Shown here: positions 12,894-62,471 of the stretch, in pieces | Layout of the letters: every line of letters begins with the position of its first letter | How positions within the stretch are numbered: the first letter of the stretch is position 1 | Assembly (NCBI GenBank): GCA_964016885.1 | Contig: OZ024758.1 | Coordinates: 7,378,001 to 7,442,000, forward strand | Reading direction: 5' to 3' | Source: Eledone cirrhosa | Taxonomy: Eukaryota | Length of the DNA: 64,000 nt | Made by a program: the position numbers and the translations under genes | Notes under the pieces: model-generated | Seen by the model: only the letters and a program-made list of their open reading frames with translations | Database searches by the model: none | Told to the model about the DNA's origin: nothing

Positions 12894-12950
12894 ATGGCTT
12901 CTACAGGACTAGAACTGTTTCATTCGAAGGAAATCATCAGGAAAGCCCAT
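12894..12950 (-). ncRNA. Type I hammerhead ribozyme, family H1
   Basis: Minus strand AUGGGCUUUC CUGAUGA UUUCCUUCGAAU GAA ACAG-UUCUAGUC-CUGU A GAAGCCAU: intact core, GUA triplet, stems I-III pair (stem I with bulges). Confidence 0.75.
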
Positions 12951-13007
12951 CAGGCGTCTAGCCCTGCAGAAGCCATATATATATATATATATACATATAT
13001 ATATATA

Positions 13008-13075
13008 TAACGAAGGAGTCCAGAAATAGCCGTCGAAACGGCTTGAGCTCTGCCGTCGGGGTCATACTTTCTCCT
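13008..13075. mobile_element. Short TA-embedded element, family P2, rearranged
   Basis: GTCCAGAAATAGCCGTCGAAACGGCTTGAGCTCTGCCGTCGGGGTC between (TA)n runs. Confidence 0.7.
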
Positions 13076-14168
13076 ATATATATATATATATATATATATA
13101 TATATATATATATATATATATATAATATATATATATTATATATATATATTATATATATATGTGTGTATATACACATATGTATGCATCTATACATATATAA
13201 AAACACACACGCGCGCACATAAATATATATTCTCTATCTCAGTTATTAAGAAATATCTTGTTTGACGCCATACAATACATTGTGTGTGTGTGTGTGTGTG
13301 TGTGTGTGTGTGTAGGCACGCACACTTGCGTGTGTATTGATATTTATAATTCATACTAAATACTTGTGTTTAATAGAGCACAATATCAAAGTTCTCGTTA
13401 AAAGAAAGCAATCATCAGCGGCAAAGCTTTTCTTTACAATTTGCCTTCTAATATTACATTCTGAAGTCGACGTAAGATATGTAATCCTATGATAATTGCC
13501 GGGGTTTTAAATAATATATTCTTATGATAGCTCTATATAGTTATAGAAATTCAAGATTTCAATGGCGTAATTCTCATTATTGTAATTTCTTATTTATATG
13601 TGATATATCTTATATAAATGATGACTACGGGAATGTGTTGTACAATGATTCTTTTTTTCCTTAATATTATGATTTCAACTTCAGACAAAACGAACACATT
13701 CAGCTATATTGGTCATAAATATATATATATCGCTCAAATAGCTTCGGGGTAGTTTATATTTCTTTGTAGTAAGTTATTAATTAGCAGGCTTAATTATATG
13801 CTTGTTCCTATTTCGTAACAAAAAAAAGCTTTAGATGTGTAATAAAATAAAAACAATCGTTTCTAGCCATATATAAGAGAAAAAAGGAAGTCTTGTCTGT
13901 TGATAACAGAAACGTAAGCATCAATAAAACCGTATAAAGTGTTATTAATAAGTAGTTTGTTGTAGTAGTTTATAAATGTTTTTTTTTTTAATTAAAAATT
14001 TCATTAAAAAGTTTATTTAAATATATCCAGCAATATTACAAATGCAGGGAATAAAGTACACAAAATACTTATATGGGAGAGTGTTTGTGTTTGTTTGTTT
14101 GTGCCTATGTATGTAGTACGTATATATCATGTATATATATATATATATATATATATATATATATATAT

Positions 14169-14362
14169 AACGATGGAAATGTGGTAAGGAACCAGGTGGA
14201 CCATAACGCACCAAAGTACTCAATACTTAGGGTAGTAGAGTGGGTAATAGGAACGAGTAGGACCGCGACGGCTGAGCTCAAGCCGTTTCGACGGCTAATT
14301 CTGGACCTGAATTAGCCGTTGAAACGGCTTGAGCTCAGCCGTCGGGGTCCTACTCGTTCCTA
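14169..14362. mobile_element. P2 element with terminal fold-back palindrome, inside (TA)n
   Basis: Same ~140-bp sequence at 52569-52735 and 61674-61810; 14248-14362 is an inverted repeat. Confidence 0.8.
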
Positions 14363-14605
14363 TATATATATATATATCGGAAATATTTCCAAACATTTTG
14401 TGCCCATCTTTCCATAATTGACCATTAGTAAATGAAGAGGTGAGACATTGCTGTCCTCATTTAAGTATTTGCCATGATTATAGGCTCACCTCGGATCTTA
14501 TAAACATCTACCAACACTCCACCTATGCTTCTCAGACACTCATATATATATATATATATATATATATATATATATATATATCTGTGCGTGTGTGTATGTA
14601 TCCCT

Positions 14606-14730
14606 GTCAGTAAGGTACTCAATACATAGCAGGGTATAAATACTGTTTCATTCGAAGGAAATCATCAGGAGAGTCCATTTCTTGGGGATTGCCTTCGAAT
14701 GCAGCAGTTCTAGTCCTGTAGAAGCCATTT
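14606..14730. mobile_element. Rearranged H1 element with hammerhead segments in both orientations
   Basis: TTTCATTCGAAGGAAATCATCAG (minus-strand core) followed by plus-strand CCTTCGAATGCAGCAGTTCTAGTCCTGTAGAAGCC. Confidence 0.7.
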
Positions 14731-15399
14731 ATATATATATATATATATATATATATATATACACACACAGATATATATATATATACACAGATATATATAT
14801 ATGCACGTCCATACACATACATATTGTATGTATAAAGATATGTTGTATGTATATGTATGTACATATATATATGTATATATATATATATATATATATATAT
14901 ATATATATTTAATTAGAAAGTGAACAAGGAGTTTTATTTTGTGGTGTTCACTTTCTAATTAAATAGCTCTGTTCTATACATAGAGCACTCTTTTTCCTTT
15001 GCTTTTTCTTCGGAATTACCTAACACACTCACACACACACACACATATATATATATATATATATATGCGCGGTTGTGTTTGTGTATATGTAAACAAATGA
15101 ATACATATAAATATATATACATGCATGTGTATGTGTGCGTGTATACATGCGCCTGGGTGTGTCCATGTATGTGTAGACATGCGTGCTTGAATTTGAGATT
15201 GTGCATGATAAATATATAATGCTGGCTTAATTAGTAGATCAATCTATTTAAATCTAATCCTGATCTATAACCTCGGAGAAACTGAAATTGTTGTAAATTG
15301 TTAAAATATAAATGTTTAAAATATATAAAATCTTCGCCGTTATTAAGAAATATCGAGTCTTAAAGTTGGGGCTTCAACATAGGCATGTTAAAAATATTA

Positions 15400-15756
15400 T
15401 ACAAGAGTGGGCTGAAACGTTCATTGACTGACTGTGAAGGAGTGATGTTAGAGCTGTGAAATCTTGCACGCATTAATTTTAGCAACTTAGCAACTCCTCT
15501 TATTAATAAACTGCATTGTTTCTTTCCAAGAACTATGTTAAAAAATAAACCTCATTTGGTCATTCCATCAGAGTATCTTGGTCAGCCTATGAAGGAGTGA
15601 TGCTAGAGCTGTGAAATCTTGCATGCATTAATTTCAACTCTTCTTATTAATAACAGCATTGTTTCTTTTCAAAGACTATGTTGAAAAATAAACCTCATTT
15701 GGTCATCCCATGAGAGTATCTTGGTCAGTCTATGACCATTTCAGTCGAATCTCGTA
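15400..15756. mobile_element. M1 MITE with internal tandem duplication
   Basis: Two copies of the internal segment, joined at CTATGAA, between one pair of outer TIRs. Confidence 0.85.
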
Positions 15757-60099: not shown

Positions 60100-60354
60100 C
60101 GTAACTTAAATATAATGGAAATTGAAGGTAGCTATCTTTAAATAGAGATTAACAGTTAATATACCTGGAAAGGTGGGGGTTGTTGTTGAGATTTAAATAT
60201 AACTTTCCACAGGTGTTCATGTTGGTTGGTACATCAACCCTTAAATAATCCCTCGAGGTTTTATATTTTTTTAAAAGAGAGCAAAAATACATGACAGAAC
60301 TTAAGAATGGCAACTGACTTTACTGGTGTTTTGTATGTTTTTATATGTTTATAT

Positions 60355-60990
60355 CAGAGATAGAGGGGGGGGAGATGGGGAGGGGAGGGGGAAGGGCGAG
60401 AGAGGGGAGAGATAGGTGGGGAGGAGAGGGGATTGAAAGGAAAGGGGAGCGAGAGTGAATGAAGGGGGTTGAGGAGAGAGAGAGGAGGGGGAGATATACA
60501 GAGATAGGTAGATAGAGAGAGAGAGAGAGAGAGAGAGAGAGAGACCGGGCGGAGGGGGGAGAGAGAAAGAGGAGAAGGGGGGGAGAGGGGAAGAGGGAGC
60601 GAGGCAGGGGGAGAGAGAGCGGAGAGAGAGAACGGAGAGAGACGGGGGAGAGGCATGGGGAGATATATAGAGAGATAAAGTGAGAAAACCAGAGAGAGAC
60701 AGATATATATATATATATATATATATATATATAGAAAGAGAGAGCGAGAGAGAGAGAGAGAGAGAGAGAGAGAGAGTGGGAGGGGCGGGATAGAAAGAGA
60801 GAGAGAGACGGGGCGGAGGGGGGGGGGAAGAGGGAGCGAGAGGGGTGAGGGAGAGAGGCATGGGGAGATATATATAGAGAGCTAAAGTGAGAAAACCAGA
60901 GAGAGACAGATATATATATATATATATATATATATATATATATATATAGAGAGAGAGAGAGAGAGAGAGAGAGAGAGAGAGAGAGAGAGT
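60355..60990. repeat. Polypurine GA-rich tract with internal ~200-bp duplication
   Basis: GAGAGGCATGGGGAGATATA...AAAGTGAGAAAACCAGAG at about 60648 and 60853. Confidence 0.85.
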
Positions 60991-61464
60991 TGTAACATAG
61001 TGTTTGTGTGAGAGGTGTTTCTGTCACCTACTTCGACGTTGTTTTATAGCCCCAGGTAAACCCCCAACACACACCTAGTCAGTCACTAGGTGTAATCCAC
61101 AAACGATGTGAATAGAAACAAGCAGTTTTGTGACATCTTAATGTCGTGTCTATTTGCATGGGAGTGTATATATATATATATATATATATATATATATATA
61201 TATTTATATATATAGGTATATATACTATATATATACATATATATGTATATATGTATATATATATGGCATACGTCAAGACGGGCGGTCTCAAAAGTGAAAC
61301 TAATTTTTTGCAAGTTACGATACACACGCAATTGTATGGATTTCTTAATATATATATATATGTGTGAGTGTGTATATGTGTGTATATATATATATGTGTG
61401 TGTGTATGTATATATATATATATATATATATATAAGATCAAAAGATGGTTAAAGGAGTTCCATG

Positions 61465-61535
61465 TATTTTATTATGCGCATTTCAAAAACAAACATCATC
61501 ATGCAATAATATTTGTGTTTTCATCAGATAAAACA
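61465..61535 (-). ncRNA. Type I hammerhead ribozyme, family H3, with long stem II
   Basis: Minus UGUUUUAU CUGAUGA [16-position stem II, one mismatch, GCAU loop] GAA AUGCGCAU A AUAAAAUA; 8-bp stem I, palindromic stem III. Confidence 0.85.
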
Positions 61536-61673
61536 GGAGAACATGACATGAAGGCCAAACAACACTTGTGGATAGTGCAGTTTTAAATCAACATAAAACT
61601 CACCTCCTACATATATATATATATATATATATATATATGTGTGTGTGTCTGTATATATATATATATATATATA

Positions 61674-61810
61674 ACGAAGGAAATGTGGTAAGGAACCAGG
61701 TGGACCATAACGCACCAAAGTACTCAATACTTGAGGTAGTAGAGTGGGTAATAGGAACCAGTAAGACCCCGACAGCTGAGCTCAAGCCGTTTCGACGGTT
61801 AATTCTGGAC
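61674..61810. mobile_element. P2 element, unrearranged, inside (TA)n
   Basis: Matches 14169-14307. Confidence 0.8.
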
Positions 61811-62428
61811 TAATATATATATATATATATGTGTGTGTGTTTGTATATATATATGTGTTTGTGTCATCATCATCGTTTAACGTCTATCTTCCACGCAAGC
61901 ATGGGTTTAGACGTATATATATGTTTGTGTGTATATATGTGTTTGTGTGTGTATATATATATATGTGTGTTTGTGTGTATATATATGTGTCTGTATATAT
62001 ATATATGTGTATATATATATTTATGCACACATACACATTAGTATGAATTGTAAATGTCACAAATTAGTTTCACTTTCGAGACCGCCCGTCTTGACGTATG
62101 CCTATATATATATATATATATATATATATATGTATATATATATGTATATATATATATATAAACGGAAAAAATGAAACGAAATTTCATTTCCCACTCTTAG
62201 TACGGCTGTTACTTAAATATAAGTATGCACACGTACATACATATATGTATACATACGTACAGTAGTATGTATATATATATACATACATGCACACATATAT
62301 ATATATATGTACGTATGGATTCACCGAACATTTATTATAATGCTCGGTGTGTTTGTAAACAAACATCCCGTATTAAGCCGTAGTGTCCAGCAACCATCGT
62401 TGCTCGTTCGTTCAACACTGACAAAGGA

Positions 62429-62471
62429 ACGCTATACTAGTTTCAAGCTTATTAGCTATCGTCAGCAACGT
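62429..62471 (-). ncRNA. Minimal type I hammerhead ribozyme, family H4
   Basis: Minus ACGUUG CUGACGA U-AGCU-AAUA-AGCU-U GAA ACUAGU A UAGCGU; 6-bp stem I with two GU pairs, palindromic ACUAGU stem III, GUA triplet. Confidence 0.8.

Follow-up and report, generated by a model that had tools for sequence, protein, structure and literature searches.

We analysed four candidate hammerhead ribozymes (HHRs), and the short repeats that carry them, in a 64,000-nt stretch of the Eledone cirrhosa genome (GenBank assembly GCA_964016885.1, contig OZ024758.1, positions 7,378,001 to 7,442,000 of the forward strand; hereafter the window, with position 1 as its first letter). This animal DNA is AT-rich and densely filled with (TA)n, (CA)n and repeats resembling short interspersed elements (SINE-like). 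An initial annotation had placed four intact, mutually unrelated hammerheads at 12894, 19619, 61465 and 62429 (in each case the 3' end of stem I), and had taken them for members of several Penelope-like element (PLE) or retrozyme families. A structure descriptor applied to the whole window matched exactly four type I motifs, all on the minus strand and at these places:

12894..12950, minus strand: HHR1, the type I hammerhead belonging to family 1, with a predicted cut after UA at 12902
19618..19670, minus strand: HHR2, C.U below a 5-bp stem II, 5' side abutting (TG)n
61456..61544, minus strand: HHR3, 8-bp stem I with an outer stem, long AU-rich stem II, 8-nt palindromic stem III
62409..62497, minus strand: HHR4, long stem I with an internal loop, U.U below stem II, 6-nt palindromic stem III

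Four type I hammerhead motifs

The strict descriptor demanded the core CUGANGA, GAAA and UH, at least 5 pairs in stem I, at least 3 in stem II and at least 2 pairs of stem III beyond A15.1-U16.1. CUGANGA occurs 22 times in the window, and 18 of the 22 occurrences form no hammerhead under this descriptor. Dinucleotide shuffles, the control proposed with the annotation, contained a mean of 0.03-0.04 motifs and a maximum of 2, and none of 750 (300 in 200-bp blocks, 300 in 1-kb blocks and 150 over the whole window) reached 4, with a descriptor that is somewhat fitted because it allowed the pyrimidine mismatch at the base of stem II after the annotation had named it. A looser descriptor gave 5 matches versus approximately 0.3 in shuffles, while allowing one core mismatch added no motif versus 0.37 expected (60 shuffles).

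All four motifs hold the core elements in type I order, with C3 at 12940, 19662, 61527 and 62465 in HHR1 to HHR4, respectively, and with A17 as the cleavage nucleotide in each (12902, 19625, 61473 and 62435). Three helices pair around the core in HHR1, HHR3 and HHR4, HHR2 being mismatched at stem I pair 2. As the annotation had described, three of the four carry a pyrimidine mismatch at the base of stem II (U.U in HHR1, C.U in HHR2 and U.U in HHR4; HHR3 has A-U) and each has a palindrome in stem or loop III: stem III is fully self-complementary in HHR3 (8-mer) and HHR4 (6-mer), and loop III contains CCAUGG in HHR2 and CUAG in HHR1. No pair among HHR1-HHR4 was significantly similar in sequence (whole-element local alignment, p at least 0.06); the lowest p value of the downstream-only alignments was 0.045 (HHR1-HHR2), uncorrected.

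A comparison with the Rfam hammerhead models, also proposed with the annotation, turned out negative: no motif reached the gathering score, and HHR4 alone aligned to a hammerhead model (HH9, with 15.5 bits versus a cut-off of 52). Across the whole window the gathering score was reached by a single tRNA-like match, and at E values up to 10 the best 150 of 426 rows were mostly matches between microsatellites and miRNA models. Predicted free folds of the minimal motifs were no better than those of shuffles. A homodimer was predicted to be preferred over two monomers in all four cases; we do not count this as support, since a hammerhead-like shared stem III was seen for HHR3 alone.

These weak scores and folds could suggest that the motifs arose by chance, or that they are fold-back DNA palindromes of a genome that is low in complexity and rich in inverted repeats. 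Such an explanation is set against the absence of four motifs from every shuffle and against HHR4, whose core is kept, with compensatory change, across thousands of copies (see below). We regard it as very improbable overall, and as already largely refuted for HHR1 and HHR4.

The description of the motifs as intact held for two of them. HHR3 and HHR4 can form the full hammerhead fold, as judged from predicted pairing. By contrast, stem I of HHR2 has one pair followed by an A.C mismatch at pair 2, and its hammerhead fold lies 8 kcal/mol above its free fold. HHR1, in turn, has its own inverted, antisense arm of 19 nt just upstream, which according to prediction would block it by pairing with stem III and the cleavage site in a hairpin of -38.6 kcal/mol. 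Two of the four genomic copies are thus probably impaired. Taken together, the four motifs are, on the sequence evidence, genuine type I hammerhead sequences that lie in separate short repeat elements.

HHR3 occupies a 175-bp island (61436-61610) with (TA)n on both sides, the fold of which is not unusually stable (z -0.4). As a separate observation, a 42-bp inverted pair (61265-61306 and 62061-62102, 98% identical) encloses HHR3 and one family 2 copy; we take this pair to resemble mariner-type terminal repeats.

Family 1 and a half-hammerhead family

The annotation expected ribozyme-bearing repeat families, and we found these for two of the four motifs, namely HHR4 (in sequencing reads, see below) and HHR1 (within the window). 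HHR1 itself has an 8-bp stem I with two bulges on the 5' side, U.U below a 3-bp stem II, a 4-bp stem III and an 8-nt loop III. Family 1 comprises, in addition:

12957..12975, plus strand: inverted 5'-truncated arm of 19 nt, adjoining (TA)n
12822..12893, minus strand: tail with a bulged hairpin
14606..14730, minus strand: antisense arm (core mutated) followed by a sense copy and a partial tail
31251..31345, plus strand: copy with a decayed core
56134..56262, plus strand: antisense hammerhead arm (mutated core) joined to a tail

With HHR1, these amount to five hammerhead segments, a single one of them complete, over four loci; in the sense copy at 14606..14730 a 32-nt deletion removes the cleavage site. 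An antisense arm is joined to a sense piece at three of the four loci, and (TA)n lies at one end in three of four. The tails at 12822..12893 and 56134..56262 share their last base, which lies 80 nt past the cleavage site. Two copies that retain the 5' strand of stem I differ there at the two bulged bases only, and stem III of 56134..56262 shows a double change from A-U to G-C. We did not see an inverted 5'-truncated arm at the window loci of HHR2 or HHR3, and an exact-pattern scan of metagenome contigs for family 1 gave no matches.

A second family had been missed in the initial annotation. At four loci we found GAAA, a near-palindromic stem III, GUC and the 3' strand of stem I, i.e., half a hammerhead without CUGANGA:

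13010..13077, plus strand: family 2 short-end copy in (TA)n
14170..14363, minus strand: family 2 inverted pair (head to head) with a tail, within (TA)n
52570..52736, plus strand: family 2 short antisense arm and tailed sense copy, in (TA)n
61674..61812, minus strand: family 2 tailed sense copy in (TA)n

All four loci have (TA)n on both sides. Five of the six arms start within a few bases of one point, and the arms end at two places, three at 20 nt and three at approximately 97 nt past the would-be cleavage site. We infer that family 2 is a truncated hammerhead. An Rfam search with family 2 gave no ribozyme match (twister included), and exact-pattern scans of prokaryote genomes and viral contigs gave none either.

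One further locus may belong to this context. At 59321-59398, a perfect 26-bp inverted repeat surrounds (TA)n and carries CUGAAGA in each arm; these arms are possibly the 5' half of another ribozyme-bearing end. The repeat had no match in the supplement of Craig et al. 2021 (PMC8557442), a source which, like the other publications cited below, is represented here by its accessible portion.

A bulged hairpin downstream of the cleavage site

Families 1 and 2 have a motif in common, which lies 38-41 nt past the cleavage site. It is built from an outer stem of four pairs, a bulge of two bases and, inside these, a stem-loop (RCUC-U-stem-loop-A-UW-GAGY-AC). The fixed letters of this pattern, written after sight of these sequences, matched 10 times in the window versus approximately 1.1 times per shuffle, and 7 of the 10 matches are family 1 or family 2 copies. 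The pattern leaves the inner pairing free; this pairing and a matched outer pair occurred jointly in 8 of the 10 matches versus 7.7% of 1628 shuffle matches. Two of these eight (at 12709 and 14966) are independent remnants:

12650..12745, plus strand: remnant like the 3' half of HHR2, followed by a bulged hairpin at 12709
14966..14990, plus strand: lone bulged-hairpin tail remnant, by eye near the tail of Hydra-2_Ajap

The likeness of the first remnant to HHR2 (34 of 61 columns identical) carries no significance value.

We then compared the motif by eye with six new consensi of the Hydra clade of PLEs from Craig et al. 2021, in which the hairpin was clear in three and approximate in two. Of the clear ones, two lie downstream of the ribozyme and one at the 5' start; their inner stems differ in sequence, yet pair in each. 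A similar hairpin was thus seen in coral and sea-cucumber Hydra elements; it was not seen in the octopus Hydra consensus of the same source. We found no description of the bulged hairpin in the accessible portion of that paper or in literature listings.

HHR4 belongs to a high-copy family

The HHR4 hammerhead is part of a longer repeat:

62308..62502, minus strand: HHR4 element, high-copy, 5'-truncated copy with its 3' end running into (TA)n approximately 125 nt past the cleavage site

To recruit its family, we compared four sequence sets with window positions 62300-62525 at 80% likeness. Matches were found in 5512 of 17,142,217 contigs (set X1), in 70 of 762,587 contigs (X5), in 30,395 of 12,467,656 restriction-site-associated DNA (RAD) reads (X21; 0.24%) and, in another organism, in 40 of 8,254,286 contigs (X4). 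The read share corresponds to approximately 7-10 copies per Mb, a figure that RAD bias limits to an order of magnitude. Loose read ends extend the element at least 30 nt further 5', to a size of at least approximately 230 bp, and so the window copy is truncated. At the other end, approximately 93% of X21 depth passes into the TA flank, which shows that the 3' end is fixed and not permuted.

Variation in the HHR4 family largely spares the core and is compensated in stem I. At stem I pair 1 the window copy has G.U, whereas approximately 98% of family reads carry C at 1.1, giving G-C. Pair 3 alternates among U.G, G.U and A-U, and its (unphased) marginals agree in X21 (64.2% U versus 63.5% G or A) and in X5 (86.4% versus 85.2%). 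Near the core, the variants listed include N7 (48%) and one base of loop II (49%); a change at G8, which lies at a CpG, is low (6% in X21, 0.5% in X1). Among the variants listed (a further 19 rows fall outside) none affects the remaining core, the U.U, stem II or stem III, and variants in the outer stem mostly keep its pairing.

Given the fold of HHR4, which follows the whole Rfam HH9 model, one may ask whether HHR4 (and perhaps HHR3) represents a solo monomer of a non-LTR (long terminal repeat) retrozyme, whose tandem masters elsewhere in the genome would be transcribed, self-cleave, circularise and be retrotransposed. This canonical geometry fits such an origin, and so do the U.U below stem II, as in the axolotl hammerhead HHR_Amex2, the size of the element and its strong self-pairing (z -5.5, with none of 200 shuffles as stable). 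Furthermore, Li et al. (2026 preprint, 10.64898/2026.07.22.740005) report solo monomers dispersed across Xenopus chromosomes and argue that retrozymes descend from PLE pseudo-LTRs (pLTRs) as non-autonomous elements, with no mollusc mentioned in the portion accessible. However, the window contains no tandem copies, a joint that goes back by one monomer is absent among the HHR4 joints listed (reads and contigs being short, and short reads being compatible with microsatellite-spaced arrays), the 3' end is fixed, the HHR3 island is not unusually stable and families 1 and 2 are inverted rather than tandem. We consider this origin doubtful; it also overlaps with the Penelope-type origin discussed below, because retrozymes may themselves be PLE derivatives.

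Finally, one or more of the motifs could be single-copy ribozymes kept by the host, like the amniote intronic HH9 and HH10. All four lie on one strand (an outcome with a chance of approximately 1 in 8) and HHR4 resembles HH9 in geometry; against this, HHR4 and HHR1 exist in multiple copies, decay changes are seen in the window copies and no host exon was identified. Of all the explanations considered here, this is the least probable overall, though it may apply to HHR3.

Two observations stand apart. One X5 contig joins the HHR4 core (62448) to the mariner-like terminal repeat of 62061-62102. Short look-alike words were noted between the HHR4 element (62366-62383) and the start of family 2 (52600-52615), and we rejected them, the alignment not being significant.

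Other repeats in the window

At positions 1-8053 a 21-bp unit is repeated approximately 383 times, and each strand of this array has one open frame (2559 aa on the minus and 2706 aa on the plus strand), the minus frame reading as a heptad repeat; the array is either a satellite or a repetitive coding exon. A family of approximately 170 bp with terminal inverted repeats, likely a miniature inverted-repeat transposable element (MITE), occurs at 8117-8309, 10896-11066, 15400-15758, 25240-25428, 49632-49841, 54404-54483 and 59231-59274, and includes one head-to-tail pair. The repeat of approximately 150 bp at 8117, 15400, 25240 and 49632 had been tried as a ribozyme family and was rejected, since it lacks the core and ends in inverted repeats. 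At 58168-58424 lies a 190-bp palindrome, head to head around a (TA)n centre (arms 94% identical), and 10103-10652 and 26626-27179 are a recent duplication of approximately 500 bp (97% identity).

A very abundant SINE-like family is represented at 19769-20098 and at more than 15 other loci, with one tRNA-like head (31914-31971) at the Rfam tRNA threshold. Remnants resembling long interspersed elements (LINE-like) were seen at 30878-31048, 25635-25826 and 42079-42510; they comprise one C2H2 zinc-finger match below the cut-off and two stretches resembling regions downstream of a reverse transcriptase (RT).

Relation to Penelope-like elements and retrozymes

We consider it likely that the four motifs sit in elements which are 3' ends, or non-autonomous derivatives, of several Hydra-type Penelope-like retrotransposon families. 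We hold this assignment with most confidence for families 1 and 2, with moderate confidence for HHR2 and with least for HHR3 and HHR4. Of the two origins named in the initial annotation, Penelope-like elements are indicated by the inverted, 5'-truncated and (TA)n-flanked layout, while a tandem retrozyme array is absent from the window. (TA)n adjoins family 2 (four of four loci, both sides), HHR3 (both sides), the 3' end of HHR4 and family 1 (three of four, one end). Features shared with the Hydra clade are the type I core, the pyrimidine mismatch below stem II, a short stem III, cleavage after UH, a ribozyme near the 3' end, (TA)n flanks, the inverted 5'-truncated arm and, in some consensi, the downstream hairpin. 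Counted by eye in Craig et al. 2021, mismatched pyrimidines form the base of stem II in 15 of 25 Hydra hammerheads, and (TA)n is given for 26 of 27 Hydra families; one family lists a 5'-truncated inverted copy, the ribozyme is near the 3' end, and the hammerhead-bearing families include Hydra-1_Obim from Octopus bimaculoides. In the window, the mismatch is found in three of four motifs and the 3' ends lie 37-125 nt past cleavage. There are also differences from the Hydra clade: no open reading frame (ORF) is linked here, the sequences are unlike those of any listed family, loop III of HHR1 is 8 nt long, stem I is extended in HHR3 and HHR4, HHR4 density is very high and the 5' half of the core is missing from family 2.

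The annotation had proposed a different type, the minimal hammerhead of PLEs, which did not hold. According to Cervera and de la Pena 2014 (PMC4209133), that type has the G10.1-C11.1 pair with one additional nucleotide following A9, and it combines a long helix II with a helix III that is nearly absent. Our motifs are similar in being dispersed, in belonging to many divergent families per genome, in their palindromic helix III positions and in their likely cleavage as dimers; by contrast, none of the four has G10.1-C11.1, and stem III is present, so that the Hydra-clade type matches instead.

HHR4 also has much in common with metazoan retrozymes, i.e., the type I fold, U.U at the base of stem II, a short stem III and a non-coding, self-paired RNA of a few hundred bp. 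Non-LTR retrozymes consist of tandem 150-450 bp units that each carry a hammerhead, and their RNA accumulates in circular form. Cervera and de la Pena 2020 (PMC7229834) described retrozymes in tandem, including an axolotl type with the same U.U; this tandem arrangement is not seen here, where the 3' end is fixed in a microsatellite.

Several results weigh against a Hydra-type origin. Some concern the window as a whole: (TA)n is abundant in the genome, which makes adjacency alone weak, our adjacency counts being without a control for (TA)n content. No RT or GIY-YIG Pfam match was found among 150 ORFs (149 of 243 higher-complexity ORFs and one extra stretch), as the annotation had also stated for the window, and a scan of the window for short RT and endonuclease motifs gave irrelevant matches only. 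Hydra-clade elements encode one ORF that joins RT to a C-terminal GIY-YIG (RWK, DKT, no CCHH); no direct link to a PLE ORF was found, with loose ends of HHR4 extending just 30 nt. None of 12 motifs derived from the window or from reads occurs in the accessible Craig supplement, where line breaks could mask matches, and the listed octopus Hydra ribozyme differs in sequence. Other results concern single families: similarity between families 1 and 2 reaches only p of approximately 0.02, uncorrected; HHR3 and HHR4 lack the bulged-hairpin pattern and HHR3 also the pyrimidine mismatch; and inverted (strand-switch) joints are rare in the HHR4 set (23 reads and 1 contig). One outer (terminal) pair of the 3' hairpin of the HHR4 element is lost (C-G to A.A), and the unphased marginals of stem I pair 3 mismatch in X1 (49% versus 38%) and X4 (85% versus 40%). 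The covariation expected with the annotation is supported by X21, X5 and the stem III double change of family 1. The long internal-loop stem I and short stem III bring HHR4 equally near HHR_Amex2, and a solo retrozyme monomer would be an equally good reading of HHR4; its PLE and retrozyme readings converge if retrozymes derive from pLTRs.

It is improbable, in our view, that the Hydra resemblance is convergent and that these are ends of another (TA)n-targeting PLE clade (e.g., Neptune) or SINE-like elements moved by LINEs. Neptune also favours microsatellites, and RTE-like and other LINE remnants are visible by eye in the window (no RT being linked); on the other hand, the mismatch frequency among Hydra families and the common downstream hairpin point to the Hydra clade, in a comparison that covers Hydra and not Neptune ribozymes.

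For elements of Hydra-type Penelope origin, the following course of events can be envisaged. A Penelope RT/GIY-YIG protein encoded elsewhere would bind the RNA just downstream of the ribozyme, nick (TA)n and start reverse transcription from one of two internal points, which would give rise to the short and the tailed 3' ends; Frangieh et al. 2024 found that two internal RT starts generate the PLE tail and that insertion in vitro proceeds without ribozyme cleavage. Synthesis would mostly halt or fold back at the ribozyme stems, leaving pieces of 70-230 bp with an inverted arm. The template would be uncleaved RNA, so that the cleavage site lies within the copies and even those whose core is dead are still inserted. 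Mobilisation may occur in trans by the Penelope protein, or the pieces may be 5'-truncated ends of elements. The putative ribozyme would cut the precursor RNA of master copies, probably as a dimer via the palindromic stem III.

Implications

That hammerheads occur in Penelope ends and in retrozymes is well documented, and a 2021 supplement lists one from an octopus Hydra element, so the headline arrangement is already known and unsurprising. Among related reports, the giant squid genome paper counted 235 Hammerhead_1 loci, and a 2026 repeat annotation of Octopus vulgaris lists 31 recently active PLE families, ribozymes being unmentioned in its accessible portion. A literature search on hammerheads in Octopus and cephalopods found no study of the present families, within a coverage that excludes most subscription papers as well as Lunse et al. 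and the 2020 retrozyme supplement, both of which might list matching variants. The new parts are the downstream hairpin and the half-hammerhead family, and these are worth following.

The very high-copy HHR4 family amounts to a mutational scan, performed by nature, of a hammerhead whose stem II is closed by U.U. Which RNA feature is recognised by Penelope proteins, and whether spreading depends on the ribozyme, can be tested directly with the hairpin and the half-hammerhead family. Tentatively, we suggest that this genome may carry SINE-like parasites of Hydra-clade Penelope elements, in tens of thousands of copies, which would share with their helper the hairpin rather than the ribozyme as a signal. 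As part of this same possible scenario, the hairpin, approximately 40 nt past the cleavage site and with compensatory changes, would be conserved from coral and sea cucumber to this animal. If true, the hairpin would be an RNA element bound by the Penelope protein ahead of internal RT initiation, and such a signal would explain how family 2 has spread with half a hammerhead.

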